DNA of 64,000 nucleotides from Phormidesmis sp. (GTDB taxonomy: Bacteria; Cyanobacteriota; Cyanobacteriia; Leptolyngbyales; Leptolyngbyaceae), in assembly GCA_965248535.1 (NCBI GenBank), contig CBDFJR010000002.1:1376001-1440000 (forward strand). The letters are read 5' to 3'. This document shows positions 2,057 to 64,000 of the stretch, piece by piece. A program made the position numbers and the translations under genes. Position 1 is the first letter of the stretch. Every line of letters starts with the position of its first letter. The notes beneath the pieces are model-generated. The model searched no databases. It was not told where the DNA came from and worked only from the letters and a program-made list of their open reading frames with translations.

Positions 2057-3955
2057 TTAGAAGGTGAAGGTCGTTCTCACCGTGCCAATCACAACATCAT
2101 CGTTTGTGGTATTCTGACCGGGGTTAATCACCCAGATGATGCCAGGCGTGATTGAGATGTTGTCATTCAACTGATACTTATAGAACCCTTCTAGGTGAAG
2201 AGGAATCGCGTTGCCCACACCCGCTGCTCTTTGAGCAGCAGACGGATTAGACACATAAGGCTCTGCCCCTGCCATAAAGCCCAAGAGGTTACCTTTCTTG
2301 CCAAAATCAGGGAAGGCTAGACCAGCGCCATAAGTCCAGATTTTGCGAGAACCGTTGCCATCATCAACAAAATCAGCGTTGATGTAAGACGCAAAGCCAT
2401 TCAACACGATCTGGGGGCTGAGTCTAAAAGCGACTTCTGCTCCATAAGCGTTGACCTTAGCTGGGGTAATTGCGCCGAGTACGCTCGTGCCTTGGTTAGC
2501 CAGCAACGTGCCCGAAGCGCCAGTGCCGCCGTTTCCAGTGTCAAAGATCGCCGATCGTCTATAGGCATTGACGTAGGTCAAGCCAAGACTTAGAGCATTA
2601 CTAGCTTTGAAGGTCACTTGAGCCAGCGCAGAATAACTGCCGTTAAACAACCCATTTTTATCAGCAGGACTGTTTGCACTAGCGACCACTGCACCCGCAG
2701 AGGTTGAGTTGTCAGCCAAATAGCCACCGCTAATCGTAAAGGCTGGGGTCAATTCAAAGTTCACGCCTGCACCACTGCCACCACCAATCAAATAGATGGG
2801 GTTGCGTTGAGCAAAAACCGACAGAGGGCCTGTGCCGCCGTCAAACGCATCTAGAGCAGGGCTGACTGTGGGCGCATAGTCATAGTGAAGACCGCCTACA
2901 GCCGGGACGTAGACTCTCACCTTGTCAGTGATGTTAAAGAAATAGGCGACCCAATCAGCAAAAATTTTGTTGCCAACCGTGTTTCCAAAGTTAAAGGTCT
3001 GAAGCCCTTCAGCGTTTACGCCACCCGGTCGGTTGGGATTGTTTAGGTTGAAAGCGCCTGCATTACCTGCGGCAAGACGAGTAACCAACAAATCTTTGCC
3101 TGTAAAGCTGGTGTTGAGCGCCAGACGAACCCTGTCTTGAAACACCGTGTTGTTGCCACCAGAGTTTCTAACGCCAAACTCATCAGTGACTGCAAAAATA
3201 ACCTCGCCTGCAAGCTTGGTTGTGGTTGAAAACTGCTGCTTTTCAAGGGTTGCCGTCCGAGCTTCTAGAGCATCAACACGACCACGCAGGGTTGCCAACT
3301 CAGCCGCAAACTCTTCTTGCAGCTTTTGCAGGGTTGCCAAGTCTTCTTTCTTTACCAAATCGGCTGTGGCAGCCGCGATTAGCTCATTGACGCGATCGAG
3401 ACAAGCGTTCAAACCAGCCGCAAACTCATAGCGACTTAAAGCGCGGTTGCCGCGATAGGTTTTGTCGGGGTAGCCCGCGATGCAGCCATAGCGCTCAACC
3501 AAAGACTGCAAGGCTTGGAATGCCCAGTCAGTCGGCCGCACGTCAGACAGTTGAGAAACCGATGTGACTTGCCCGATCGCTGCCCCACCTTTTCCTTCCC
3601 GGCTGTAGCGATTGATTTGGTCGATTGAGTTGAGATCAGCACTCTGGTCTGCCGGAGAAGACACTTGAGCAACTTGAACCGGGGCAATCTTAGAAAGCTT
3701 TAGCTCGGTAGATTTTTCAGAAATCTCTTTGGCTTGAGTGGTCTTCGAGGTGGCAACTTCAGCAACCTGAGCCGCTTTGACTTCAACAGACGGTGCGACA
3801 AGCGCCTCAATTGCTTGAGTTTTCGCTGCGATCGCGACCGGAGATGTCGGAACAACGACTGACTTTTCTGCGGCGATCGCCCCAGAAGAAACCGCTAGAG
3901 CTACCCCAAAAAGCGCTGGGCTGACCACTAACGAATTCAACAGAAATTTAAACAT
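2057..3955 (-). CDS. Cyanobacterial outer-membrane porin (SLH domain plus OprB-like barrel; SomA/SomB type)
   Basis: Signal peptide; QVTSVSQLSDVRPTDWAFQALQSLVERYGC; QFSTTTKL; C-terminal RTTFTF. Start placed at ATG 3955 after GAGGAG. Confidence 0.95.
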   Translation of the reverse strand: MFKFLLNSLVVSPALFGVALAVSSGAIAAEKSVVVPTSPVAIAAKTQAIEALVAPSVEVKAAQVAEVATSKTTQAKEISEKSTELKLSKIAPVQVAQVSSPADQSADLNSIDQINRYSREGKGGAAIGQVTSVSQLSDVRPTDWAFQALQSLVERYGCIAGYPDKTYRGNRALSRYEFAAGLNACLDRVNELIAAATADLVKKEDLATLQKLQEEFAAELATLRGRVDALEARTATLEKQQFSTTTKLAGEVIFAVTDEFGVRNSGGNNTVFQDRVRLALNTSFTGKDLLVTRLAAGNAGAFNLNNPNRPGGVNAEGLQTFNFGNTVGNKIFADWVAYFFNITDKVRVYVPAVGGLHYDYAPTVSPALDAFDGGTGPLSVFAQRNPIYLIGGGSGAGVNFELTPAFTISGGYLADNSTSAGAVVASANSPADKNGLFNGSYSALAQVTFKASNALSLGLTYVNAYRRSAIFDTGNGGTGASGTLLANQGTSVLGAITPAKVNAYGAEVAFRLSPQIVLNGFASYINADFVDDGNGSRKIWTYGAGLAFPDFGKKGNLLGFMAGAEPYVSNPSAAQRAAGVGNAIPLHLEGFYKYQLNDNISITPGIIWVINPGQNTTNDDVVIGTVRTTFTF

Positions 3956-3962
3956 GAATATT

Positions 3963-3972
3963 CTCCTCACAC
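3963..3972 (-). promoter_or_regulatory. Putative Yfr1 sRNA target site over the porin RBS
   Basis: mRNA reads GUGUGAGGAG just upstream of the ATG, complementary to the conserved Yfr1 motif ACUCCUCACAC. Confidence 0.6.
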
Positions 3973-4379
3973 CTGGTTTATAGAGCGACTGTTTGAGCCT
4001 TCTACCTGTCTAGTCTAGACTTGTAACCACTTCTGCAAACTACAAAACCTACGCCAGCCTATCACTCAGGCAGTTGAGTTATGTATGCCAAATTACAACT
4101 AGAGAGCGACTTTGGAAATAATAGCAGATGTTTGCCAAGAGTGTCTGGCTGTTGTTGGGATCGATCACAGCAAAAAATCCCTTGCAAATCTCCTCCTATA
4201 AATCTCCCAGAGGTTAGCCAACTATCACCTCTATCGAAAGGAATACATACTTTTAATCAAGACCGCTAATTCTCTGCAATGCTGGGAATTGGGGGTTAAA
4301 CCAGCCAGAATCTCTCAGGATCTAGCACTGCTCTAGGTCGATATATTCGACTAGCTCCCATCGAAGATCCTCCCTTTTA

Positions 4380-4640
4380 AAAACTATCCGCTCCTGCTAA
4401 AGAAACGTTGGTAAAACCAAAATCCCAAGGAGCAGGAGCGGTGTAGGGGGTCTTCAGATTGCAACTAGACTGCCGGAAGGGACTCCAGGCTAGTCAGCCG
4501 TTATGGATGAGCCATCTCTACCAGTGTGGAAGATCTAACTCTAGAGAGCAGCCCCGGCGCACAGCCAGTTCAACACAACCTGACGACCCAGGCGTATACT
4601 ACTATCTTGCATGGGCATCACCTCCTATCGCCTAAACGGC
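4380..4640 (-). ncRNA. Candidate sRNA with internal small ORF (4541-4612, MQDSSIRLGRQVVLNWLCAGAAL) and 3' hairpin
   Basis: GGAGG RBS at 4621-4625. Inverted repeat CCGCTCCTGCT/AGCAGGAGCGG (4388-4441) is followed by a T-run on the minus strand. Boundaries are approximate. Confidence 0.45.
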
Positions 4641-4734
4641 TTTATTATCAAGGGTTTACACCGTCGAAAGCAGATAAATTTCGCTGCTTCAATTCAAGAT
4701 AACACAGACTTTTTCGAGTGTGTTGCAATCTCAC

Positions 4735-4763
4735 AAAAAAGCTCCCACCTGACTGGCGGGAGC
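4735..4763 (-). terminator. psbD terminator
   Basis: Minus strand reads GCTCCCGCC-agtca-GGTGGGAGC-TTTTTT. Confidence 0.8.
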
Positions 4764-4790
4764 GATCGAAAATGTGCAATTCCAGACCCT

Positions 4791-5849
4791 TTAGAGAGCG
4801 TTACCGCGAGGCAGAACCTCTTCAGGGAATACAAATTTTTCGTGGGGCTGGTCCTGAGAAGCCATCCAAGCGCGGATGCCCTCGTTCAACAAAATGTTCT
4901 TCGTGTAGAACGTTTCAAATTCCGGGTCTTCCGCCGCCCGCAGTTCTTGGGAGACGAAATCATACGCCCGCAGGTTTAGCGCCAAACCAACGATGCCCAC
5001 CGATGCCATCCACAACCCCGTCACCGGGACAAACAGCATGAAAAAGTGCAGCCACCGCTTGTTGGAGAAGGCAATCCCAAAAATCTGTGACCAGAAACGG
5101 TTTGCCGTCACCATCGAGTAGGTTTCTTCACTCTGGGTGGGGTTGAACGCCCGGAAGGTGTTGGCGTTTTCGCCGTCTTCAAACAGGGTGTTCTCCACCG
5201 TCGCGCCGTGGATGGCGCACAGCAGCGCGCCGCCCAAGATGCCCGCCACGCCCATCATGTGGAAGGGGTTGAGGGTGAAGTTGTGAAACCCTTGGATGAA
5301 CAGAATGAATCGGAAGATGCCCGCTACGCCGAAGCTCGGAGCGAAAAACCAACTCGACTGTCCCAACGGGTACATCAAGAAGACGGAGACGAAGACGGCG
5401 ATCGGGCCGGTGAAGGCGATGGCGTTGTAGGGACGGATGCCGACTAAGCGGGCAATCTCGAGCTGCCGCAGACAGAAGCCAATCAAGCCGAAGGCTCCGT
5501 GCAGGGCGACAAATGCCCACAGACCGCCGATTTGGAACCAGCGAGTCAGGTCGCCTTGGGCTTCAGGGCCCCACAACAGCAGCAGGGAGTGCCCCATGCT
5601 GTCGGCGGGGGTGGAGACGGCGACGGTGAGAAAGTTGGCTCCTTCGAGGTAGGAGGAAGCCAAGCCGTGGGTGTACCACGAGGTGACGAAGGTGGTGCCA
5701 GTCATCCAGCCGCCCACGGCCAAAAAGGCGCAGGGGAACAGCAGGAGGCCTGACCAGCCGATGAAGACGAAGCGATCGCGTTTCAACCAGTCGTCGAGTG
5801 CGTCAAATACGCCTCGGCTTGGTTGCGCGCGCCCTACTGCTATGGTCAT
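4791..5849 (-). CDS. psbD: Photosystem II D2 protein (monocistronic copy, no psbC downstream)
   Basis: [35 protein letters not shown]. Confidence 0.99.
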
Positions 5850-6034
5850 AACGCAAATCTCCAAAGATTATGAGAACGGAAGACAAACCATCAAACTTGC
5901 TACCAGCAATCGCTCCGATTGGAGTTGACTCGGCCGCCGGGCAAGCATGATTTACTTTTCTTCACTTATTCCATCGATTATAGAGGCATGTTCTTCAAAA
6001 ATTCCAGGTTTGCACCCGCAAATCTTAAAGCTTC

Positions 6035-6052
6035 TTTATATTTCTTAACACT
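6035..6052. promoter_or_regulatory. Possible HLR1 (RpaB) site upstream of psbD
   Basis: TTTATATT-TC-TTAACACT is an imperfect match to the (G/T)TTACA(T/A)(T/A)-N2 direct repeat. Confidence 0.35.
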
Positions 6053-6124
6053 TGAAGACAGAGCCAACCGCATCAGGCAGATATTTGCGATACTAGAGCT
6101 TGGTTATCCGTAAAGCACTCTCCT

Positions 6125-6391
6125 ATGTTCATTATCGAATTGACGTTAAAGACTACACCTGTTCCCCTCTCGGTGCAGCGCAAATCAGCAGAAGATGCAG
6201 AAAAGACTTACCAAGAGATCACGGCGGCAATGCGCGCTGGCAGTAGCCAGGTTTTAGAGCTAACCTGCGATCGTCAAACCGATAAGAAACTGGCGCTGCT
6301 CAGTGACGGTCTAGCTGCGGTGCAAATCTATGAAAAATCAAGTGCGTCTGCTTCTGGTAGAGCGCCCGGTTTCTTCGCGATGGCCGAGTAA
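6125..6391 (+). CDS. Conserved cyanobacterial hypothetical protein
   Basis: Well-formed 88-aa ORF ending GRAPGFFA, 6 nt upstream of the ABC ATPase. Confidence 0.8.
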   Translation: MFIIELTLKTTPVPLSVQRKSAEDAEKTYQEITAAMRAGSSQVLELTCDRQTDKKLALLSDGLAAVQIYEKSSASASGRAPGFFAMAE

Positions 6392-6397
6392 GCCCCC

Positions 6398-7084
6398 ATG
6401 ACTTCTGGATCGACTGCTGCCATTCACATTCACGATCTCTGCTTTAGCTGGGCTAAAGATAGAACCGTTTTGCAATCTTGCTCTCTAGAAGTGCCAACTG
6501 GAGAGTTTTGGATGCTGTTGGGCACGAATGGCAGTGGTAAATCCACTCTATTGAGGCTCTTGGCTGGGCTGTTAACGCCTGACTCAGGAGACATTGAGAT
6601 TTCACCCCCGATCGGGTTTGTGTTTCAAAATCCTGACCATCAGCTTGTGATGCCTACGGTTGGTGCAGATGTAGCGTTTGGCTTGGTTCAAGAAGGGTTG
6701 TCAATTTTAGACGTGCGGCAGCGAGTCGAAGAGTCTCTGGCTGCCGTCAATTTATTGGCACTGCAAAGGCGGCCGATCTACGCCCTCAGTGGAGGACAGA
6801 AGCAGCGAGTCGCGATCGCTGGAGCTATTGCCCGCCACTGCGGGATTTTGCTGTTAGATGAACCCACCGCGCTGCTTGACCCCGACAGTCAGTTAGACCT
6901 AGTGGCTCAAGTGCAAAAACTAGTTAAAAACCGGGGCATGACGGCCCTGTGGGTGACTCACCGATTGGACGAGTTGGACTATTGTGACGGAGCCTTTCTA
7001 CTAGACCAAGGGCGAGTCGTAGATCAGGGAGACCCCAAACGGTTGAGACAGCGCTTAATGCAGACTGAAGAACTAGCAGACTAG
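6398..7084 (+). CDS. ECF-type / CbiO-like ABC transporter ATP-binding protein
   Basis: GTNGSGKST; FQNPDHQ; LSGGQKQR; LLLDEPT. Confidence 0.9.
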   Translation: MTSGSTAAIHIHDLCFSWAKDRTVLQSCSLEVPTGEFWMLLGTNGSGKSTLLRLLAGLLTPDSGDIEISPPIGFVFQNPDHQLVMPTVGADVAFGLVQEGLSILDVRQRVEESLAAVNLLALQRRPIYALSGGQKQRVAIAGAIARHCGILLLDEPTALLDPDSQLDLVAQVQKLVKNRGMTALWVTHRLDELDYCDGAFLLDQGRVVDQGDPKRLRQRLMQTEELAD

Positions 7085-7242
7085 CGCTGATTGAAGACTC
7101 ACAAACCCGCTGTGAGGATGAGCTTTTCTGGTTCGTCTGACATCTTGGCGCAAATTTTTGTATCCAAACCTCAATCGGAGGTGCCAATATTAAGAAGTGA
7201 GAAGCCAACGTCAGCGTCCGTCTGTCCCATCACCCTAAATCC

Positions 7243-7797
7243 ATGCCCCGTTCTGCGCCCCAAGCTGTGCTGTTGGTGGACGGCTATAACATAGTCGGCG
7301 CTTGGCATGACTTGAAGCAGGTGCGAGACGGTCAGGGGCTTGAAGAAGCGCGCCGCCACCTGATTGCAGCGTTAACGGGTTACAGCGCTTTTCAGGGATT
7401 TGACACTCAGGTCGTTTTTGACGCGCAATATCGCGACAGCCTGGCTACTCGCGAAGTGGTCACGCCCAATTTGTTGGTTCACTACACTGATTTTGGGCAG
7501 ACCGCAGACACTTATATTGAGCGATCGTGTGCTGATTTTCGTCACGACATTCGCAAATTTCATCAACGGCTGATTGTGGCAACCTCCGATCGGGCCCAGC
7601 AACTGACCGTGGTGGGCTATGGAGCAGAGTGGATGTCAGCCCAACAGTTAGCCAACGATGTTGAGTTTGCGGCTCGGCGAGTGCAACGCAAACAGAAAGA
7701 CGTTAAGAAATCATCGGGTCGGTTTTTGTTTAATGCTCTCGACCCGATCGCTCAAGAGCGGTTAACCCGGCTACGGTTTGGCAAAGATCAGAAATAA
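7243..7797 (+). CDS. NYN-domain (YacP/Rae1-like) ribonuclease
   Basis: LLVDGYN; VVFDA; TADTYIE; VATSD. Confidence 0.9.
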   Translation: MPRSAPQAVLLVDGYNIVGAWHDLKQVRDGQGLEEARRHLIAALTGYSAFQGFDTQVVFDAQYRDSLATREVVTPNLLVHYTDFGQTADTYIERSCADFRHDIRKFHQRLIVATSDRAQQLTVVGYGAEWMSAQQLANDVEFAARRVQRKQKDVKKSSGRFLFNALDPIAQERLTRLRFGKDQK

Positions 7798-7810
7798 GTT
7801 GGCAAAAGGC

Positions 7811-7840
7811 TTGTCAAAAGGTCGGGTTTGTCGTTATTAT
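7811..7840 (+). promoter_or_regulatory. Putative sigma70 promoter of tRNA-Asn
   Basis: TTGTCA-N18-TATTAT. Confidence 0.45.
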
Positions 7841-7861
7841 TGGATTCGCAACGAGTAACGT

Positions 7862-7933
<72 letters not shown>

Positions 7934-7952
7934 TTTTCAAAATCAATAGCTT

Positions 7953-8249
7953 TTACTGACTCCGAGCCTTATCTGTCAGCCAGGCTAAAAGTGGCTGTAT
8001 TGCCTCGGTCGCGGCTTCATCAACGTGGATCGTGTGCTGCTTCCTGCCTTCTTTAGCGGTGATTTTGTAGTGAAAGCGATCGGGTTGAAAAGGGGTGGCT
8101 GCGACTTTTGAAGGCAGATGAAAAAAGTCTGCCGCTTGCATGAGTTGCCGAAGTTGTTCCGCGTCAGATGACGACAAGGTTTCTGTGTCAACCGTTGCCG
8201 TCATCGTCATTCCCGCAAAACCACCGCTACGCTCGAATGTGACTTTCAT
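7953..8249 (-). CDS. Emfourin-family protealysin inhibitor
   Basis: ERSGGFAG and DRFHYKIT motifs; lies directly downstream of the M4 peptidase. Confidence 0.9.
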   Translation of the reverse strand: MKVTFERSGGFAGMTMTATVDTETLSSSDAEQLRQLMQAADFFHLPSKVAATPFQPDRFHYKITAKEGRKQHTIHVDEAATEAIQPLLAWLTDKARSQ

Positions 8250-8274
8250 GAGGCAAAAAGTGAGGAACTAGTCT

Positions 8275-9345
8275 CTAAATAACTCCAACCGTTTTCCAAG
8301 CATTTTGCACCGCAACGTGTTCTTTACTATTTTTGCCGTAAAGTTCGGCGGCGATCGCGATCGTCACGTTAGCAGCCGTTTTGAAGGTGGCTCGGCGGCT
8401 CAGACGCTCGGTTAGCGCCACATACCAGATTTTCCCAGCTTTTTCCCAGGCGTGTCCTCCCATCTCGATCGCGGACAAACAAAAAGCTCGATTGGGAATG
8501 CCCGAATTAATGTGAACGCCGCCACTGTCTGCCGTGCCCGTGTATAGATTTTTGAAAACCGCAGGTTGAGGATCTTTTCCCAAAACTTTATCGTCGTAAG
8601 CCGTGCCGGGGGCCTTCATCGATCGCAGAGCCACCCCATTTACTTTGGCCGTAAACAGCCCTTGCCCGATCAGCCAATCTGCTTGGTCGGCAGTTTGGTT
8701 CAAAGATTTTTGCTTGATCAACGAGCCAAAGACATCCGAAAAAGATTCGTTAAGCGCCCCCGGCTGTCCCTTGTAGATCAGCGCGGCCTCACTTTGCGTG
8801 ACTCCGTGGGTTAGCTCGTGCCCAATCACGTCGATCGATTTCGTGAAGCGATCGAAGATTTCACCATCCCCGTCGCCATAAACCATCTGACTGCCATTCC
8901 AAAAGGCATTGTCATACTTACGATCGAAGTGAACTGTAGAATCGAGTCGCATCCCCAACCCGTCGATCGAGTTGCGCTGAAACACATCGTAATAAAAATC
9001 GTAGGTTGCGCCTGATCCGTCATAGGCTTCATCAACCGCGATATCGCCTGTGGGCGGGTCGCCTTCTCCCCGAACTAGCGTCCCTGGTAAGTCGGTGGCA
9101 TTTTTGGCGTTGTAGATGGTGCGGCGCTTAGTTCCGGCGGGGGCCATAAATCGAGTGGCTCCGATCGCCTCCCGTCGTCCTCGAAATTGCTCCGATGCTC
9201 TCAGCGTTTCTAAAGCCCACTCGCGCTGAGTTTGGCTGCCGCTCAGAATAATATGATCAGTCATGTAGGGAGGCAAAATGCAGCAAATGGGACAGATATG
9301 AGACCCTTGGTGCTTGCCTGATAACCGTTTAGCTGTCGTTCTCAT
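8275..9345 (-). CDS. Protealysin-like M4 zinc metallopeptidase
   Basis: CILPPY propeptide motif; NAFWNG; HELTH; GALNES; GGVHINSG. Confidence 0.95.
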   Translation of the reverse strand: MRTTAKRLSGKHQGSHICPICCILPPYMTDHIILSGSQTQREWALETLRASEQFRGRREAIGATRFMAPAGTKRRTIYNAKNATDLPGTLVRGEGDPPTGDIAVDEAYDGSGATYDFYYDVFQRNSIDGLGMRLDSTVHFDRKYDNAFWNGSQMVYGDGDGEIFDRFTKSIDVIGHELTHGVTQSEAALIYKGQPGALNESFSDVFGSLIKQKSLNQTADQADWLIGQGLFTAKVNGVALRSMKAPGTAYDDKVLGKDPQPAVFKNLYTGTADSGGVHINSGIPNRAFCLSAIEMGGHAWEKAGKIWYVALTERLSRRATFKTAANVTIAIAAELYGKNSKEHVAVQNAWKTVGVI

Positions 9346-9667
9346 GGCTTTAAATTGCTCCTAGTTTTGAAAATGAGAGACTGACTTCTAGCGCCGAATT
9401 CTGATGTTTTGTTACAAAACTTATATTTGTTCTCAGATAATTTCCCTCTTACTTTTATGATATTTAACAGACCTGACAAATTGGTTCTACACACTTTTTA
9501 ATAATTCAGTGTTTGAACCCGAAACGTTTTAATCTAAAAGTAAGCGTGGTTGACCCTGGATAACGTTGTATTCATGTGGTTCATTACTTCAACAGAATGT
9601 GTGTTCTAGAAGTAACGAGGCTGATTGACGGAGACAGGTGACACTCTGGTCAGATTTAACACAGTAA

Positions 9668-13099
<3,432 letters not shown>

Positions 13100-13163
13100 T
13101 CAACCCTTGAGCGAGTCAACAAGGGGCAGGGCTGCCCGTCCCTAAGCCAACTGTGATTAAAGA

Positions 13164-13200
13164 GGTCTCGATCGAGGTGATAGCGATCGAGACCTTTTTG
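13164..13200. terminator. Terminator between apcE and the NIL gene
   Basis: AGGTCTCGATCG..CGATCGAGACCT-TTTT. Confidence 0.7.
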
Positions 13201-13226
13201 TTGACCCATCAGAGTCAACAAGCGCC

Positions 13227-13505
13227 TCACCAGCCATCGGTTTCAGACTCGTTCCAGACTTCTAGATCTAACTCTGCCAAATAGGTCAGGGCATTTTCAA
13301 TCTGAGCTTGACTTCCTTGAAGGTTGAGGTCAAACCAGCCGTCGCCATTGGCGTTGGCTCCCAAAATAGCGGCGGTGATGTTGACGGTGAGCGAATAGTC
13401 AGAGATGAGATGAGAAATCACGGGTTCTTGATGATAGTGCTTGGGAATGCGGATGCGGATGCGCTTTTGCGTCGATCGCGTGTCTGGATTAGTGAGGGTT
13501 TGCAT
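13227..13505 (-). CDS. NIL-domain protein
   Basis: RIRIPK.Y.QEPVIS.L...VNI..A.L..GWFDL.L.G pattern. Confidence 0.85.
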   Translation of the reverse strand: MQTLTNPDTRSTQKRIRIRIPKHYHQEPVISHLISDYSLTVNITAAILGANANGDGWFDLNLQGSQAQIENALTYLAELDLEVWNESETDGW

Positions 13506-13591
13506 GATGGCTTATTTTAATCTACAGATTGTCAGTCGGAATACTGTACTTAATAGACCCTATCTTAGCGAGAAACGTTTTTAAACGCAAG

Positions 13592-13627
13592 TAGCGCCCT
13601 GCTCCACCTCGGTGGAGCAGGGCGCTA
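13592..13627. terminator. Hairpin downstream of ispG
   Basis: TAGCGCCCTGCTCCACC-tc-GGTGGAGCAGGGCGCTA. Confidence 0.75.
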
Positions 13628-13667
13628 TTTTGGACTTGTGGTTTAGCAGAATCTTGGCAATCTTTGA

Positions 13668-14891
13668 TTAGGGGTCGATCCAGCGATCGTCGCCCTTGAT
13701 CAAATTAATCAACTCTTGCACCCCATCCGCTTCAGGCACTTTTTTAATCTCGTCTCGACCGCGATAGAGAGAAATCAGCCCGGCTTGTTTGCCAACATAG
13801 CCATAGTCAGCGTCAGCCATCTCACCGGGGCCGTTGACAATGCAGCCCATGACCGCAATGTTTAGCCCCGTCAGATGCTGGGTTGCGTTTCTGACTTGAT
13901 GCAAGACTTCTTCTAGATTAAAGAGCGTCCGGCCACAAGAAGGGCAGGCCACATACTCTACCATCGTTCTTCGCAGACCCAGCGCTTGCAAAATGCCATA
14001 GCAAACCGGAATCTCTTTTTCAGGAGCCTCAGTCAGAGAGACGCGAATGGTGTCGCCAATGCCTTCAGCTAAAAGGGTGCCAATACCTGCGGTGGACTTG
14101 ATGCGCCCATATTCACCGTCTCCGGCCTCAGTCACGCCTAAATGCAGGGGATAGTCCATGCCTAGCTCATTCATGCGCTTGACCATCAGACGGTTTGCAG
14201 CCAGCATGACGGGCACCCTAGAGGCTTTGAGCGAGAGTTCAATATGGTAGAAGTTGAGCGATTCACAAATGCGAATAAACTCTAGCGCCGACTCGACCAT
14301 GCCTTCAGGGGTGTCGCCGTAGGTAAACAACATTCGCTCTGAGAGGGAGCCGTGATTGACCCCGATCCGCATTGATTTGTTCTGGTCACGCAGCGACACA
14401 ACCAAAGGCTCTAGAGTTTCGTAGATTTTGTCACCGATCTCTTTAAATTCTGCGGGGGTGTATTCGGTGCGATCGCTCTTGGGCTTTTCAAACACATAGA
14501 GGCCAGGATTGATCCGCACGTTATCGACATAGTTCGCCACTTCTAGGGCGATTTTCATGCCGTTGTGGTGCACATCGGCGACCAGAGGCACGGGCTGATA
14601 GGTTTTGTGGAGGCGATCACGAATCTCTTCCATCGCTTTGGCGTGGGCCATGCTCGGCACCGTCACGCGGACAATCTCGCAGCCGATTTCGTGCAGTCGT
14701 TGAATCGCCGCGACCGATCCCGCAATGTCTAACGTGTCTTCGTTGATCATTGACTGAACCGCAACCGGATGACTGCCTCCGATCGTAATGCTGCCCACCG
14801 GAACGGGGCGGGTCTTGCGACGATGAATGGTGGAGTCTGTAGATAGCTCACTGGAAATCGGAGCAGGAACGAGGCTGGGCAAGGTTTGCAT
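13668..14891 (-). CDS. ispG: (E)-4-hydroxy-3-methylbut-2-enyl-diphosphate synthase
   Basis: [30 protein letters not shown]. Start placed at MQTLP. Confidence 0.97.
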
Positions 14892-50891: not shown

Positions 50892-50961
50892 GTATTCTAG
50901 AAATCAACCTAGATTTCCAGACTGCATCTGTGGTAATCTAGGAGCTGCATTGAATAGGTTT

Positions 50962-51034
50962 GGCTCAGTAGCTCAGTGGTTAGAGCAGGGGACTCATAAG
51001 CCCAAGGTCGCAGGTTCAAATCCCGCTTGAGCCA
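50962..51034 (+). tRNA. trnM: tRNA-Met(CAT), elongator type (Ile2 not excluded); probable integration site
   Basis: GGCTCAG/TTGAGCC-A acceptor stem; CTCATAA anticodon loop; GGTTCAAATCC T-arm. Confidence 0.92.
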
Positions 51035-51103
51035 TTTTTTAGGATGGAATAAAATATCCCGTAGCCCCGTATTTCAAGGGGTTACGGGATTTTCGCGTTT
51101 GTG

Positions 51104-51168
51104 CAATACCCTCTAACACCCTTTAATACCCTCTAATACCTGCCTACTTTTTAGGCAAACTTTAGGCA
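51104..51168 (+). repeat. Short direct repeats; putative integrase/Xis arm sites
   Basis: AATACCCTCT-AACACCCTTT-AATACCCTCT-AATACC (10-nt period) and TTTAGGCA x2. Confidence 0.55.
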
Positions 51169-51169
51169 C

Positions 51170-52300
51170 ATGATTGAAGGCAGACTTGCACAGGCTAACG
51201 GACGATTGAAAGCTTCTAACGTGGGTGTGAGCATCGAGATAAAGGGCAATCGCCTTTATTTACGATCGACGTTCCCCCCTAAACCCGGTTCAGATAGAGA
51301 AAAGCCCTCTCAGCAACGTTTGACGCTTGGCTACCATTCAAACCCGGCTGGTCTGAAACTGGCAGAACAAGAAGCGAGAAAAGTCGGCGCGCTGCTCGAT
51401 TGTCGTGAGTTTTCTTGGCAACCGTATTTAACGGCATCTATCATCAAACCCCTGACGATCGCTGATTGGGTGCAGAGATATGAGATTGATTATTTCAATC
51501 GTCGTGAGCAGACCCCTGAGAGTGTAACGACTTGGAAAGGTGACTATCTACAGGCTTTTTCGTGTCTGCCTCCAGATGAACCGATCACTCTGCAACTGCT
51601 AACAAGCGCTATCACTGCTACTAAACCAGATTCTAGGAATCGAAAGCGGTTTGTCGATGTGTTAGGACGGCTCGCAGTGTTTGCGGGGCTAGAAGCCAAT
51701 TTTAAGCCACTGAAGGGGAATTACTCACCGAGCAAGGTAACGCCGCGTGATTTACCTCCAGATAGCACGATCGCGGCATGGAGGGAGAAAATCCCTAACC
51801 CTAAATGGCAGTATGCCTATGGTCTGATTGCCACTTATGGAATTAGACCCCATGAGGTATTCCGGTGCAACCTGGATAAATTCCCGGTGCTGCAAATTGA
51901 GGAAACGACTAAAACAGGGCAGAGACGGGTTTATCCGTTCTACCCTGAGTGGCTTGAGCAGTGGAATTTAAGGGAGGGCACCTTGCCACGGGTCACGGGT
52001 CAGAATAACTCTGATTTGGGTAATCGGGTGAGTCACCAGTTTAGGCGCTATGAGGTGCCCTTTCCTCCCTACAATTTGCGGCACGCTTGGGCCGTGAGGT
52101 CGATGGAGTTTGGGCTAGACATTAGCCTAGCGGCGCAACAGATGGGGCATAGCGTCAGAGTCCACAGCGAGATCTATCACGCTTGGATTAGTGAGGAGGT
52201 GCATCAGAGAGCGTATGAGGCTCTCATGATGAGGAGCGATCGCCCGTTGCCTCCTATCTCATCTCTGGGGGAATCTCTAACGCCTCCTCACAGCGTTTGA
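51170..52300 (+). CDS. Tyrosine integrase
   Basis: YGIRPHE (R); KTG (K); YNLRHAW; MGHS; IYH (Y); N-terminal arm-binding-like region. Confidence 0.93.
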   Translation: MIEGRLAQANGRLKASNVGVSIEIKGNRLYLRSTFPPKPGSDREKPSQQRLTLGYHSNPAGLKLAEQEARKVGALLDCREFSWQPYLTASIIKPLTIADWVQRYEIDYFNRREQTPESVTTWKGDYLQAFSCLPPDEPITLQLLTSAITATKPDSRNRKRFVDVLGRLAVFAGLEANFKPLKGNYSPSKVTPRDLPPDSTIAAWREKIPNPKWQYAYGLIATYGIRPHEVFRCNLDKFPVLQIEETTKTGQRRVYPFYPEWLEQWNLREGTLPRVTGQNNSDLGNRVSHQFRRYEVPFPPYNLRHAWAVRSMEFGLDISLAAQQMGHSVRVHSEIYHAWISEEVHQRAYEALMMRSDRPLPPISSLGESLTPPHSV

Positions 52301-52728: not shown

Positions 52729-53666
52729 CTATCGTTCCTCCAAGATTTGGTTGCCGTCGATCAAGAAGCGCCACTGGTTATCGGTAATCAGATTCCTCAC
52801 TAAATCGGCCCAGCCGGCCGCGAGCAGCGCTTGCAGTCGCTCTAAAACAAAGGTGCGATCGCCGAACTCGATCGCTCTTTGGCAACTTTCGCGAATTTCA
52901 AATAAATCGGGTGCCGCCGCCGCCACCGGAACCTGACCCGTCTCAACCTGACGATTTTGGCTGATCAGAAAGTCTTGCTGATTGGCTTCTAACGGTGCCT
53001 GCTTTTTGACCCACTGCTCTAAGAAGGTGGGCCGGACTGGGAGCTGCTCAGATTTCCAGATCAACCAGTCTCGATAGGCGGGTTCGATCTCCTGTTTTGC
53101 GTCAGCATTTTTGTCTCTCTCTCGATCATCTCTGTAGAGAGAGAGAAAGATTGTAAAGACTGTAGAGATAGAGGCGATCCAGACCCGTTATGGGATGCGG
53201 GTTCTGGCGGTTTTTTGTCGCAAATTTGCGAATTTTTGTCGCATAAGTGCGAATCTGAGTCGCAAAACTGCGAATCTGAGTCGCAAATTTGCGAATTTTT
53301 GTCGCACTTATGCGAATCTGAGTCGCAAATTTGCGACAATTCCTCCAAAAAAACATATTCTGGAACTCCCTCTGAGTTTGACATAGGAACGTTTAGTTCC
53401 ATTTCGTCGGGGGCGCTAATTTCGAGGCGATGCTGCTCAGAAAGTTTTCCGATCGCTCGGTAATAACTGGCTTTGTTGATGCCCAGTTGATCGCAAACCC
53501 AACTGATGCTGAGGCGCACCACTTTGCCAAGTTTGCGGGCACTGGCTACCAGGTAGAAAATTGCGCCCCTGGTCGTGAGCAACCCGGCTTTATAGTCTCG
53601 AATGACATCTTTAACGGTCAGTCTATGGTGGGGTTGGGTTTTGGGTGTTTTTACGCTAGGATTCAT
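52729..53666 (-). CDS. Putative replication initiator (N-terminal HTH), split by a frameshift in CT/AG tracts near 53113-53148
   Basis: HTH segment ISWVCDQLGINKASYYRAIGKL; internal 21-nt repeats; the downstream frame stays open back through the tracts. Confidence 0.65.
53213..53337. repeat. Six 21-nt tandem units with palindromic core TCGCA-N4-TGCGA (iteron-like)
   Basis: GTCGCA starts at 53217, 53238, 53259, 53280, 53301 and 53322. Confidence 0.9.
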
Positions 53667-55203: not shown

Positions 55204-55473
55204 ATGGATTCAGAAAAAAACAACCCGTGGGAGGAAGGCGTGTCCCCTTTAAAAACAATCCGCCAGTTGCTCAAACTGACTCAAAGGCAGTTTGCAGAAA
55301 GGATTGGCTCAGACCAAAACGTTGTGAGCCGATGGGAAAGGGGTGTCTATGAGGCGACTTTTACCATCGCGCAAGTCAAGGCTATGGATGAGTTGCTAAA
55401 AGAGGCATCCCTTACCTGGCAAGACATTCCTAACAGTCTTGCTCCCTACTCAAACGAAAGCGCTGAGGCGTGA
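55204..55473 (+). CDS. XRE-family HTH regulator (repressor/Cro-like)
   Basis: LK.IR..L.LTQ.QFA..IG.....VSRWERG. Confidence 0.92.
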   Translation: MDSEKNNPWEEGVSPLKTIRQLLKLTQRQFAERIGSDQNVVSRWERGVYEATFTIAQVKAMDELLKEASLTWQDIPNSLAPYSNESAEA

Positions 55474-57697: not shown

Positions 57698-57994
57698 ATG
57701 TCAGCTTTACCCACTAGACCCAGCGCGATCGCCACCACCGAACAGGAAATCATGCGCCTGATGATGTATTACCGCGATGTCAACCCGCGCACGACTTGGC
57801 TAGAAGAATCTAACTTCACCATGCCCGTGGCCTCATGGGATTGGAAACCCAACCCAGAAGGACGGATTCTCTTTGTGGCCCGCGCCATTATCGAAGTCGA
57901 TTCAGCCCTTCTCAGCAGTGGGGTCAAACCGTGGATGAGTGCTAAAGAGGTTCCCGGCTCCGCTACGTTGACGGGCAACGCCTACACCACCTGA
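57698..57994 (+). CDS. Prophage hypothetical protein, putative structural
   Basis: 98 aa; first gene of the tightly packed rightward module. Confidence 0.7.
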   Translation: MSALPTRPSAIATTEQEIMRLMMYYRDVNPRTTWLEESNFTMPVASWDWKPNPEGRILFVARAIIEVDSALLSSGVKPWMSAKEVPGSATLTGNAYTT

Positions 57995-57998
57995 TGCA

Positions 57999-58697
57999 AT
58001 GAACTGGACACAGTTAGGCAAAAGCATCACGATCGCCTCACAGCGCAAGTGGACTGATACGACGGCTAAGACTTGGTTTAAGTTTGATTTCAACCCGGCA
58101 ACCGAGGGATTTTTAGAAGTCACTCAAGGGGATGGAAATCTGACGATCGGGGAACCGATCAACATTTCAACGGATAGAAGCCCGGTGATTTTATCCCTAC
58201 CAGTGCCGCTATTAGTCAGTCCACAAAGCAGAAAACTCGCGCTTAAATCGCTCCAAAAACTCAAGATTAGCATCTCTACTTTAGATGTTGAACCTATCAC
58301 AATCAACCCAGATTTAAGCGCAGTTGTTCAGGCAATTCAAACTCAACAATCGCAGATCGACCTCATCTCAAACCAACTCACAACCTTACTCACCATGCCA
58401 TTATTTCAATCCAATCCCACCGTTCAGCCGCCCAAGAATTCCGTCTCTGCAACGATCGCTAGCTCAACCACAAGCGTATCGCTGTTAGCAGCAAACGATA
58501 ATCGCAAAGGTGCCACTATCTATAATCGCAGCACTGCCACACTGTTTATCGACTTTGACAGCGCTGCAACAATTCTAGATTGTGCTGTGGCTATTCCTCC
58601 AATGGGTTACTACGAAGTGCCGTTTGGAATGCTCACCGCAATCTCAGGTATCTGGGATGCAGTCAACGGTAGCGCATATGTTAGAGAGCTAACCTAA
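57999..58697 (+). CDS. Two-beta-domain protein with coiled-coil linker, putative spike/vertex protein
   Basis: C-terminal domain (TTSV.L..R.G.TI.NRST..I.GIWD..EL) is paralogous to that of 63025-63705. Confidence 0.65.
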   Translation: MNWTQLGKSITIASQRKWTDTTAKTWFKFDFNPATEGFLEVTQGDGNLTIGEPINISTDRSPVILSLPVPLLVSPQSRKLALKSLQKLKISISTLDVEPITINPDLSAVVQAIQTQQSQIDLISNQLTTLLTMPLFQSNPTVQPPKNSVSATIASSTTSVSLLAANDNRKGATIYNRSTATLFIDFDSAATILDCAVAIPPMGYYEVPFGMLTAISGIWDAVNGSAYVRELT

Positions 58698-59308
58698 TGC
58701 CGTTGTATGCCTACGATAAACATGACACTTACACTCAGGCTATCAACTGGGAGACACCCGGTGAGATAGGAAAAACAACACCTAACACGGGAAAGTTTAC
58801 ACGGGTTAGTGTTGCCAATACTAACAATGAGATTAGTAGATTTAGTTCGTCTGCTCAATACTATGCACGGCTAGCAGTTGAACACTCTGGGAGTCCGGGT
58901 ATAGCGCTCTATCATGATTCAACTTGGGCATGGTCTATCTTCTCAGATAGCGTCCTATTGAGCAATGGACAGACTAATGGATATAGCTACGCCATTGTTA
59001 ACGAGCGAACCTCTAAAATGGTGTTTGCTATTGATGGCAATGTGCAAAAGGTCAATGTGTTTGGAGGGCTGAGAGTTAGCAAGGAAACACCTAACCTCAC
59101 CTTCACTTCACCCCCCTCACCCGGCGAAGGCAACCTAGCCGTCGAGGGGTTTGTTCAGTTGGGCAGGTTCACCCTCTCTACTCTGCCTAATCCCGCTAGC
59201 TGTGAGGGTGCGATCGTCTATCTCTCTAACGAGTCTGGAGGCAAGACGATCGCCTTCTCTGATGGTGCGAACTGGAGACGAGTTAGAGACAACGTTGTTG
59301 TTACTTAA
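58697..59308 (+). CDS. Fibre / receptor-binding-like protein
   Basis: IG.TTPNTG.FT segment; C-terminal TLP.P...GAIVY.S.E.GG...AFSDG.NWRRV.D, a motif I recognise from phage fibre proteins. Confidence 0.65.
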   Translation: MPLYAYDKHDTYTQAINWETPGEIGKTTPNTGKFTRVSVANTNNEISRFSSSAQYYARLAVEHSGSPGIALYHDSTWAWSIFSDSVLLSNGQTNGYSYAIVNERTSKMVFAIDGNVQKVNVFGGLRVSKETPNLTFTSPPSPGEGNLAVEGFVQLGRFTLSTLPNPASCEGAIVYLSNESGGKTIAFSDGANWRRVRDNVVVT

Positions 59309-61998: not shown

Positions 61999-62503
61999 AT
62001 GTCTGCAATCAGCGTCACTGGCTCTAGCCTCAAATCAACCACCCTCCCAGGTGCCCTTCTCGAAGCCTGCTCTATTTCTCGATTCTGCTGAGAAAGCTCG
62101 GAACGGCGCAAACCCCGGAATCACTCCTAAAAACAACGTCAGCATCACATTTTCGAGTGACGACGGCACCGCTAACATCGCGGCTACCTTACCCGTTGAT
62201 GTTTCACAGCTATCTGATGGTGGCGTGAAATATCTGCCTAAAGACTATCTGGGTGGCACCTATGCGGCCTTTACTGCTGGTGGCGATGTCACGGCTACTT
62301 CTCGCATGGCGGCGGTTGCTCAAATTGCTCAGATTTTGAGTGCGGCTGAGAAAGCGATTCAACCCTTAGAAGATCAGCCTAATTTCATCCAGGTTGAATC
62401 CTCTAGCGAAAATGGCACCATCACCGTGACGGCTGCTCTTCCGATCGTGCAAACCATCAGTTCTAGCGGACTGGTGACGATCGCCGCGCTCGACTACCTC
62501 TAA
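61999..62503 (+). CDS. Tandem-duplicated alpha/beta protein, candidate major structural protein; one extra nucleotide near 62068
   Basis: ATG at 61999 gives MSAISVTGSSLKSTTLPGALLEA, which joins ALFLDSAEKA; the two halves of the repaired protein align. Confidence 0.65.
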
Positions 62504-62534
62504 ATCAGGAAGAAACCTATAGGAGGTATAAATC

Positions 62535-62999
62535 ATGGCTGAAACAGCAGCAGCAAAGAAGCATAGAGCTAGAGGTCCGAGACAGCTTTTTGGATGGGGA
62601 ACGATCACGGTGACTCGTGAGAAGAAGAAGGTTAAGCACAACCCCTTTTCAACGATTCCTAAAAGCACGATGGATGCCTGCGGCTTGAAGATTGCCAAAG
62701 CCCCTGCGAGTGCAGGAGTGAAAACCAAGAAAGACAAAAAGGGGCGCTTGAGACTGGTTAACAGCCAAAATCTGACCAACGTCTCCTCTCGCTACATCAT
62801 GGTTTATGCAGGTGAAACCGACAACAAACAAGGGGAAGTCTGGCATCGGATCACCCTACCAACCGGGATTTCACTCGCTAGAGGAGCGTCTATTCTCACG
62901 GGTGGAGGCTCTAAAATCCAAAAGGTGAAATTCCCGAACGGTAAAGCCGTCCAGATTGGCAAGAAAATCACCCCGAAAGCGGCTCCTAAGAAGAAGTAA
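62535..62999 (+). CDS. Highly basic Lys-rich protein, putative nucleic-acid-binding core protein
   Basis: AGGAGG RBS; K/R-rich; ends KKITPKAAPKKK. Confidence 0.75.
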   Translation: MAETAAAKKHRARGPRQLFGWGTITVTREKKKVKHNPFSTIPKSTMDACGLKIAKAPASAGVKTKKDKKGRLRLVNSQNLTNVSSRYIMVYAGETDNKQGEVWHRITLPTGISLARGASILTGGGSKIQKVKFPNGKAVQIGKKITPKAAPKKK

Positions 63000-63024: not shown

Positions 63025-63705
63025 ATGCTTGACCCAACTGAATGGCGGCTACGCGGCACCCGGCTCTATGGGATTAGGGGCGATCGGTCTCCCCTAATCC
63101 TCTGCCGTGACCTCACTTCTCAACTCGTGCGGGTTGATGTAGTTTTCAAAAATCTCAAATCGACTTGGTATAAGGCGGGAACGATTCAGCAGGTGTCGGA
63201 TGGGATTAGAGCGGCTGAGAAGACCGTGCCGTTTGAGTCTCGCTACTATTTGTTTCCAACGGATTTAGCACCCACCTATTCGCTTTATTGGCAGCCCGTG
63301 CCATGGCTACCAGTGGGGCGCTTACAGGTGTGGGAGTATATCGGATTGATTCCTGATGCACTCCTTCATCAACTCGCTAACTTCTCTGGAGAGTCTCAAA
63401 TGCCTGTCATTACAAATCCCGTCGCTCGTGCAGCCACGTCACGAGACACTGACAAAGGGGTCAGCACTACGTCTGTTGTGTTGATGCCTGCTGAGTTACG
63501 CCGCGTGGGGGGCACGATCATCAATCGATCTACCATTGCCTCGCTGTCGATCAATTTCGGTGAAACAGCAACGTCTGCTGACTATCACCGCCTCACCCCT
63601 GGCGGCTCGATCGATATTCCTATCTCTTGGGTGGGAGCGATCGCCGGAATCTGGGATAAAGCAGATCCCCTCGGTAAAGCCGTCATGACCGAGCTACTGG
63701 GCTGA
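63025..63705 (+). CDS. Two-beta-domain protein, putative structural
   Basis: N-terminal domain with TWYKAG and PVPWLP..LQVWEY; C-terminal domain paralogous to that of 57999-58697. Confidence 0.7.
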   Translation: MLDPTEWRLRGTRLYGIRGDRSPLILCRDLTSQLVRVDVVFKNLKSTWYKAGTIQQVSDGIRAAEKTVPFESRYYLFPTDLAPTYSLYWQPVPWLPVGRLQVWEYIGLIPDALLHQLANFSGESQMPVITNPVARAATSRDTDKGVSTTSVVLMPAELRRVGGTIINRSTIASLSINFGETATSADYHRLTPGGSIDIPISWVGAIAGIWDKADPLGKAVMTELLG

Positions 63706-63742
63706 AAGCCCTTGAGTTAAATCAGTTCTCCTGAAGCACCAG

Positions 63743-63768
63743 GCGCGGGGTCAGTCCCGCGCTTTTTT
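63743..63768 (+). terminator. Intrinsic terminator
   Basis: GCGCGGG-gtcagt-CCCGCGC-TTTTTT. Confidence 0.7.
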
Positions 63769-63786: not shown

Positions 63787-64000
63787 GTGAATAAAAATGA
63801 GTCGATTCTGTTTACGATCACCGTGCTCTCTTTTGGGGCTGGTCTGTTGCATCGTGTCTGGCTGATGTCCATGGCGGTTTCAGGAATGCGCCATAATCTG
63901 GAAAAACAAGACATCCGGTTGGAAAATCTCAACGATCTACATGAGGCCGGGTTTAATGGGTTTAAAGAAAGGATCGAACACTTCACTAACCGGACTCGCG
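63787..64000 (+). CDS. TM plus coiled-coil protein (3' truncated by window edge)
   Basis: GTG start; MNKNESILFTITVLSFGAGLLHRVWLMS..; open to the window end. Confidence 0.55.
   Translation, partial: MNKNESILFTITVLSFGAGLLHRVWLMSMAVSGMRHNLEKQDIRLENLNDLHEAGFNGFKERIEHFTNRTR

Follow-up and report, generated by a model that had tools for sequence, protein, structure and literature searches.

Few capsid folds are known for bacterial DNA viruses. The small tailless phages PRD1 and PM2 have double jelly-roll major capsid proteins (P3 and P2, respectively), and in PRD1 the P5 protein forms a collagen-like vertex fibre. Levivirus coat proteins consist of an N-terminal hairpin, a five-stranded sheet and two C-terminal helices, and the shells of bacterial microcompartments (BMC), those of cyanobacteria included, are built from small alpha/beta tiles found both as single proteins of ~80-100 amino acids (aa) and as tandem fusions. 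A viral origin has been proposed for heterocyst interruption elements, whose gene content is described as poorly conserved (PMC4874684). Here we analysed a 64-kb window (the whole stretch studied, positions 1,376,001 to 1,440,000 of contig CBDFJR010000002.1 of Phormidesmis sp.; all coordinates refer to it, those past its end being given as window-equivalent) and found that a gene for a 167-aa protein is part of a 13.4-kb cryptic temperate phage-like element of this filamentous cyanobacterium. We give a probability of roughly one in three to this protein being a self-assembling, capsomer-like tile of the particle surface, a capsid reading that is plausible because its family appears to be the best conserved of the gene module, no other shell candidate was found and a basic partner is encoded next door. 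No description of the family or of the elements was found in the literature, as judged by titles and the openings of abstracts.

The gene is not intact in the window:

61999..62503, + strand: frameshifted gene of the 167-aa two-repeat family, with the frame break at ~62066-62071

The frame that starts with the ATG at 61999 begins MSAISVTGSSLKSTTLPGALLEAC (in full, MSAISVTGSSLKSTTLPGALLEACSISRFC) and ends after 30 codons at a TGA (62089-62091). The adjacent frame is open from 62000 through the stop at 62501-62503, and the mechanical list of open reading frames (ORFs) shows at this gene solely a GTG-started ORF of 150 aa (62051-62503). The initial annotation had proposed that removing one base at about 62068 gives a 167-aa protein, and the relatives agreed with it. 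A search of 5.8 billion proteins yielded 210 candidates, 91 of them with E<=1e-3, and 81 of these 91 homologs were 166-169 aa long; the N-terminus MSxIxTTGSSLKS...LEAALLLDxAEKA, in which the predicted MSAIS.. start recurs as MSxIx, was present in all 16 homologs aligned with the window's frame. Because the homologs have this length and this start, the window evidently carries one surplus base at ~62066-62071, the natural form being, to judge by its relatives, 167 aa.

In two public runs (X1 and X2, from one study of related strains) all the contigs covering the break were one letter shorter than the window (depth 25.5/25.5 in X1 and 28.7/28.8 in X2), and no contig identical to the window's version at the break was seen. 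These contigs diverge from the window elsewhere too; they show the frame break to be private to this assembly and do not tell a mutation from an error. The check at 62060-62075 suggested at the outset thus found the extra base absent from homologs and contigs. A real lesion rather than an assembly error is favoured by two observations: the element has a second lesion in its replication-like gene, which is likewise split (see below), and the host Pfam domains are unsplit (12 host ORFs of the window were scanned, and the 7 with Pfam matches were matched near end-to-end, with no split domain). A programmed frameshift was rejected, as relatives have a plain 167-aa frame and a slippery site is not visible.

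The two halves of the restored protein align, as the initial annotation had stated, with 21 of 64 residues identical (33%; BLASTP E 3e-6), and in divergent relatives both halves match the same part of the family profile. Both repeats have AEKA at the end of the helix and DYL at the last strand, and the C-terminus is exactly DYL in 82 of 82 sequences. The intact product is acidic. Its structure was modelled with AlphaFold2 on P0002, an intact relative with 95% identity, using 82 natural homologs as input (pLDDT 94.5, pTM 0.88). DSSP assigned to the model the elements H16-37, E47-52, E57-70 and E76-80, followed by H102-118, E130-135, E140-153 and E159-163, supporting a predicted covalent pseudo-dimer of two 83-aa helix-plus-three-strand units, in line with the covalent dimer of a helix-plus-strands unit expected from the sequence.

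Searches with this model gave no structural neighbour, neither a virion protein nor the non-virion protein that would have spoken against a shell. Foldseek against the PDB had no match with E<=0.001 (best 4e-2), and neither did a search of BFVD (best 4.7e-3, TM 0.15). Among 48,161 representative chains VIA-align found nothing at Z>=5, its top score of 4.1 covering 62 residues of helices only (according to the tool's own note, the usual best Z for models with no clear match is 7-8). For Foldseek's top 1000 chains, examined once more, the best Z was 3.5, and a tail chain of phage Sf11 in that list (Z 3.4) was tied with unrelated rows. No chain of the HK97 fold, which has A- and P-domains with an E-loop and a spine helix, was among the listed matches, although a missing match does not exclude that fold, and no jelly-roll chain appeared in the fold-search lists, the model having three strands and one long helix per repeat. 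The initial view that the protein fits neither HK97 nor jelly-roll was therefore in keeping with the searches, and the permuted ssRNA-phage-coat-like fold raised there as one speculative option found no match in any of them. The family model thus has no structural neighbour and no recognisable fold, although a missing match alone is not proof of a new one. An engineered tandem cyanovirin retrieved from PDB sequences with the family profile (E 0.003) was discarded as chance, because this value adds up two stretches that on their own have E 4 and 15. The nearest clusters in the ESM Atlas scored 0.85-0.88, all below 0.9, and were taken as leads only.

A profile search of 1.84 billion representatives (clusters at 50% identity) found 273 family clusters at E<=1e-3, of which 105 reached E<=1e-10. 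The 150 clusters listed had the following forms:

111 of 150: stand-alone tandem form
19 of 150: single-repeat form, ~80 aa
8 of 150: ~175-aa N-terminal extension, joined via a conserved YKYGYYIxY stretch
5 of 150: short extension, 30-99 aa
2 of 150: long repeat proteins
1 of 150: C-terminal discoidin-like part (Pfam E 3.4e-5, below cut-off)
3 of 150: other forms
1 of 150: artefact (P0209)

P0209, a PKD-repeat protein among the profile matches, was dropped as a repeat artefact. The discoidin-like part belongs to P0111 (312 aa), a family member whose C-terminal portion resembles F5/8-type-C domains, which hints at a glycan-binding, surface-exposed version of the protein. Among 401 sampled cyanobacterial genomes the family was present in 15 (the own genome included), from 5 of 42 families, a patchy spread that fits a mobile element.

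Related loci were taken from genome contigs (5), metagenomes (7) and sampled cyanobacterial genomes (15). The relatives sit in small integrase-bearing elements (~10-15 kb) with a conserved order, namely a 98-aa ORF, a 232-aa ORF, a long protein with a conserved C-terminal domain, the family, a basic ORF and a 226-aa type ORF. In the five closest loci, identity to the window copy was 64-79% for the family, 41-55% for the C-terminus of the 831-aa protein, 31-43% for the basic protein and 32-46% for the 226/232 type, suggesting from these alignments that no other protein of the module is as well conserved as the family. The 20 loci with a called family member were clustered into three element types, with the 226/232 cluster in 13 of 20 and the 831-aa C-terminal cluster in 12 of 20. 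The ORF after the family was basic in each of the 10 type-A loci checked (net charge +24 to +30) and in all 4 type-B loci that have the stand-alone form (+10 to +21). The Nostocales type has, in place of such an ORF, an N-terminally fused basic extension of ~175 aa (+8 to +15 in 7 of 8).

That the protein is located in the virion, self-assembles and forms a shell, and what the basic protein does, are our inferences. The intact protein would be a self-assembling building block of the particle surface, in which two fused repeats do the work of the two separate subunits of relatives with a single ~80-aa repeat; this tile would carry the fibre proteins encoded nearby and would work with the downstream basic protein, which would neutralise the DNA. 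Single and double jelly-roll capsids follow the same single/tandem logic as the family forms, as do BMC-H and BMC-T, and the existence of single and fused double forms thus supports a shell. Discoidin-like domains are common on surface-exposed virion proteins, and the one carried by P0111 supports a shell as well.

The element around the gene has the following features:

50961..51035, + strand: tRNA-Met (CAT), integration target, found with ARAGORN
50990..51041, no strand: attL, a 52-bp exact direct repeat with its twin, attR, at window-equivalent 64373-64424
51170..52300, + strand: 376-aa divergent tyrosine recombinase (weak Xer matches, motif by eye)
52729..53666, - strand: replication-initiator-like gene with iterons inside, in two frames versus an intact 318-aa homolog (L005), the break being at about 53050-53130
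55204..55473, + strand: 89-aa HTH_3 (cI/Cro-type) regulator (Pfam 7e-11; PHROG transcriptional regulators)
57698..57994, + strand: conserved 98-aa protein of the structural-like block, with no profile kinship to the family
57999..58697, + strand: 232-aa protein whose C-terminal ~100 aa are common with the 226-aa protein and a podovirus 144-aa ORF
58697..59308, + strand: 203-aa fibre-like protein whose C-terminus matches an ORF of Erwinia phage UCB24
59330..61825, + strand: 831-aa protein whose charged N-terminus is joined by a Pro-rich spacer to a conserved C-terminal domain of ~230 aa
61896..61916, + strand: conserved 9-bp hairpin ~85 nt 5' of the start codon of the family gene (10 of 11 type-A loci)
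62535..62999, + strand: strongly basic protein of 154 aa (net +27), ribosome-binding site AGGAGG
63025..63705, + strand: 226-aa protein, paralogous in the C-terminal domain to the 232-aa one
63741..63764, + strand: terminator-like hairpin of 10 pairs plus a T run, closing the block
63787..64000, + strand: 98-aa protein, the last gene before attR, running to 64083, beyond the window

The 52-bp repeat comprises the last 46 bases of tRNA-Met and 6 more, and its copies are 13,383 bp apart; attR (L002 12373-12424) lies just past the window end and is followed, on the host side, by a TPR protein and then by DnaJ-, GrpE- and DnaK-like ORFs (only the TPR protein was scanned, the others being read from the sequence). 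The recombinase matched NCBIfam XerS, XerA and XerD at residues 292-348 (E 3e-4 or weaker, far below the curated cut-offs) and had no match in Pfam; a motif ..LRHAWAVR...GHS..VHSEIY.. (R..H..R..Y-like) was recognised by eye, and the protein is 29% identical to the 466-aa recombinase of a related element (L023), which matches PHROG integrase families at 1e-15. A stretch after attL and ahead of the recombinase gene (51105-51140) repeats AATACCCTCT 3.6 times, and these copies may be arm-type binding sites. The minus-strand gene, which is winged-helix-turn-helix-like, contains a tandem array of 5.7 copies of a 21-bp unit (53217-53336) with the internal palindrome TCGCAAATTTGCGA; it had no family match in Pfam or NCBIfam, and its anatomy suggests an initiator with iterons. 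The HTH_3 regulator is divergent from the minus-strand genes, and the element also holds small acidic ORFs and a coiled-coil ORF. A mobile element is supported because of the tRNA-Met target, the 52-bp repeats, the recombinase, the helix-turn-helix regulator and the iterons.

The genes for the 98-, 232-, 203-, 831-, 167-, 154- and 226-aa proteins follow one another in this order and end at the terminator-like hairpin. The gene after the family was found as initially described: an AGGAGG motif (TAGGAGGT, 7 nt upstream) precedes a basic 154-aa product with 34 K+R against 7 D+E. The 98-aa ORF at 57698, which is conserved in related loci, had initially been noted for a similar helix-then-strands pattern, but a comparison of its profile with that of the family showed no similarity (hhalign probability 0.2%). 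The last 98-aa ORF, before attR, has an apparently hydrophobic N-terminal segment, read by eye as a putative membrane anchor.

The hairpin upstream of the frameshifted gene, which lies between it and the long fibre-type gene, recurs at the matching places of L004-L007, L038, L039, L041, L042 and L044. Its outer stem CTTCG/CGAAG is kept and its inner pairs covary. Folded one sequence at a time, 10 of 11 loci gave energies of -9.7 to -19.3 kcal/mol; RNAalifold gave no pairs on the upstream alignment, whose columns are out of register. It lacks a U-run and is therefore not a classic terminator; it may serve in processing, binding or regulation.

The surrounding proteins have links with phages. 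The C-terminal 57 aa of the 203-aa protein correspond to the C-terminal end of a fibre-like ORF of 773 aa in Erwinia phage UCB24, and the C-terminal domain common to the 232- and 226-aa proteins occurs in an unannotated 144-aa ORF of a podovirus (L021, MW202524.1, 5770-6204), just upstream of a 598-aa fibre-like ORF starting MPL...; this order mirrors that of the 232-aa and 203-aa (MPLYAY...) genes of the window. In relatives the spacer of the 831-aa protein is swapped for collagen repeats with tail-fibre PHROG matches. The C-terminal domain of this protein was modelled with pLDDT 78.2. Foldseek found no match for it, and VIA reached Z 5.3 at best, on 42 residues (a ZapA-like hairpin plus helix); the domain's Z against 2H-phosphoesterase folds was 3.5-3.7, with one sole invariant His, and its profile found nothing among PDB sequences. 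The basic protein had no usable match in the ESM Atlas. Using tblastn, nothing was found among phages for the family, the 831-aa C-terminus and the basic, 98-aa and 226-aa proteins, nor among plasmids for the family. The related elements bring integrases, endolysins (Amidase_3, Peptidase_M15_3 and a C39-like peptidase) and primase-helicases of the D5_N and DnaB/AAA_25 types. The phage-like look comes from the fibre-region domains common with phages and from the endolysins, primase-helicases and collagen-type fibres of relatives.

Other observations were made in the related elements. One relative (L023, G366:C1:4980800-5000799, at ~3020-14607) interrupts nifD downstream of an NifH-like ORF, the N-part of nifD ending ...HMEEAYGIP and the C-part starting (W)MEYNFFGPTK; it holds the 466-aa XisA-like recombinase, a collagen-type fibre gene and a family member with a ~170-aa N-terminal extension. 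Another gene interruption may be present in L034 (2263-4512), where a 235-aa ChlI-type Mg-chelatase ORF is followed by a 500-aa integrase and a family-bearing element. Small tyrosine recombinases of ~190-200 aa, reduced to the catalytic domain, lie beside family or fibre genes (L024 5503-6075, L030 14632-15231, L032 7866-8447, L033 10456-11058 and L035 8615-9187) and may be invertases switching fibre genes. One metagenome contig (L038, MWWH01000116.1, 1511-19975) carries two different family genes ~10.1 kb apart, its gene set being partly repeated at an exact offset of 10,084 bp and partly diverged, which could correspond to two related elements in tandem or to a circular form assembled twice. 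One module was found on a 178-kb contig, adjoining relaxase and MobC genes.

Genes for known virion parts were looked for in the window's element and around its relatives. Capsid, portal, terminase, tail-tube and packaging-ATPase families were absent from the matches of the 20 element ORFs scanned against Pfam, 13 of which were also scanned against PHROGs and 13 against NCBIfam, and a P-loop motif was found in no ORF of the element. Capsid, portal and terminase were likewise missing among 244 neighbour ORFs (at least 100 aa) of related elements in Pfam and 99 of those in PHROGs, where the only 'head and packaging' rows were 'virion structural protein' families on the collagen or fibre repeats of fibre-like proteins; a weak tape-measure row (2.6e-6) concerned a 509-aa homolog of the long protein. 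The sequence scans for HK97 capsid, portal and large terminase were negative, although very divergent forms could escape them. The own genome (99.76% complete) had no match to Phage_capsid (PF05065), Phage_portal (PF04860) or Terminase_6N (PF03237), the three families tested there. With no capsid, portal or terminase match, the shell gene, if there is one, is therefore of unknown type.

Several points weigh against a shell protein. The shell role is proposed here from genes and a model; no packaging ATPase or portal is present in any element, so that nothing points to a motor-driven capsid. The size of the protein is small, single-repeat forms having only ~80 aa, and its presence in 20 of 20 loci is by construction, as the loci were found with the family. 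Fibre-like genes flank the family gene in every element type, a motif of ~20-40 residues (DYL..FTxGGDvtAT..A..q) is common with the eightfold repeats of two long phage fibre-like proteins (whole-protein E 1e-7, each single stretch being weak), some relatives are fused to other domains, one of them (P0099) having a fibre-like N-terminal part by eye, and the weak ESM Atlas neighbours include the fibre families Fibritin_C and Phage_fiber_rpt. Type-C elements hold other uncharacterised proteins of 241-862 aa that could form a shell. The basic ORFs of type A and type B had no profile homology (E 0.05, probability 1%), the profile probability between the basic protein and the N-terminal extension of the family was 0.1%, and none of 51 pattern matches in an IMG/VR scan was a relative.

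The alternative that survives best, possible and nearly as likely as a shell, is a fibre-associated protein, whether it links fibre and particle, assists fibre assembly or is a small adhesin at the distal end. The gene comes directly after a long fibre-type gene in 12 of 20 loci, next to or near 226/232-cluster proteins in 13 of 20, and directly 5' of a 568-aa ORF with tail-fibre PHROG matches in L037; in several loci, however, the family lies upstream rather than downstream of the fibre genes. The proteins that share the motif match phrog_31688 and a tail-protein PHROG, but the match is short and its single stretches are weak. The fusions in P0099 and P0111 and the Atlas neighbours with Fibritin_C or Phage_fiber_rpt also agree with a fibre role, whereas no fibre-assembly (Caudo_TAP-type) family was matched in Pfam or PHROGs and the family is far better conserved than the surrounding fibre proteins, unlike adhesins or fibre chaperones.

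An unlikely alternative is a non-virion role in the life cycle of the element, for example as the module by which a regulator oligomerises or senses, or as a partition or immunity factor. The ~175-aa N-terminal extension of 8 of the 150 listed clusters would be in favour of it, since a basic version is common to 7 and its first ~60 residues look, by eye, like an excisionase-type helix-turn-helix (with no Pfam match), and so would the conserved hairpin upstream of the gene. Most forms are nevertheless stand-alone (111 tandem and 19 single of the 150), the acidic stand-alone form lacks a DNA-binding part, and the gene lies inside the fibre-gene block, before the terminator that closes it and far from the regulator and replication genes.

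Finally, it is improbable that the elements are satellites or defective remnants with no shell of their own, the protein adapting fibres to the particle of a helper phage: none of the elements yielded a capsid, portal or terminase, they are small (~10-15 kb) and two genes of the window copy are frameshifted, but relatives encode their own endolysins and replication genes, and the three families absent from the own genome leave no resident helper of those types.

Going one step beyond the surface tile, the family might provide the major capsid protein of undescribed small (10-15 kb), tailless, fibre-bearing temperate DNA viruses that infect filamentous cyanobacteria, with a new alpha/beta shell of single or tandem repeats around DNA condensed by the basic partner, motor-free, some heterocyst interruption elements being their domesticated or decayed descendants; we regard this wider proposal as speculative and rather doubtful. 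Elements that encode integrase, lysis, replication and fibre proteins and have no recognisable capsid, portal or terminase are a place to seek a new virion architecture, and their common gene is here a confidently modelled protein of unmatched fold. The family links a tRNA-integrated element to a nifD-interrupting element in another cyanobacterium, by which the viral descent of heterocyst interruption elements becomes directly testable. If the protein were merely a fibre accessory, the elements would still be an uncharted class of small cyanobacterial mobile elements.

Compared with known systems, the family resembles double jelly-roll capsids in its two fused similar domains and single-domain relatives, and the element resembles PRD1/PM2-type phages in being small and temperate, in having fibre proteins, some of them collagen-like, and in having no tail genes. 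A jelly roll is eight-stranded, however, whereas the family model has a helix plus three strands per repeat with no fold match, and PRD1/PM2-type phages have an FtsK-type packaging ATPase, of which the element, with no P-loop motif, has none. BMC-H and BMC-T are also small alpha/beta tiles in single and tandem form, but the family had no match to Pfam BMC, no structural match and a mobile-element rather than a metabolic context. Membership of the family in the double jelly-roll or tandem BMC groups was thus not supported. The MS2-type coat of leviviruses is likewise a small alpha+beta protein with a dimer as its functional unit, although the order of structural elements differs (helix first and three strands per unit in the family), the family belongs to an integrated DNA element and no Pfam match was found. 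Fibre assembly or tip proteins of the Tfa and gp38 type are similar in being small genes beside fibre genes, but the family matches none of their families, is much better conserved than fibres and is often upstream of them. The phrog_31688 fibre-like repeat proteins share with the family the motif at the junction of repeat 1 and helix 2, but they are 871-1266 aa long with eight repeats and the match spans only 20-40 residues. The nifD heterocyst element, with its XisA-type recombinase, has its counterpart in the L023 relative inside nifD, whose recombinase is the one 29% identical to that of the window, whereas the element of the window lies in a tRNA gene and in a host of another cyanobacterial family.

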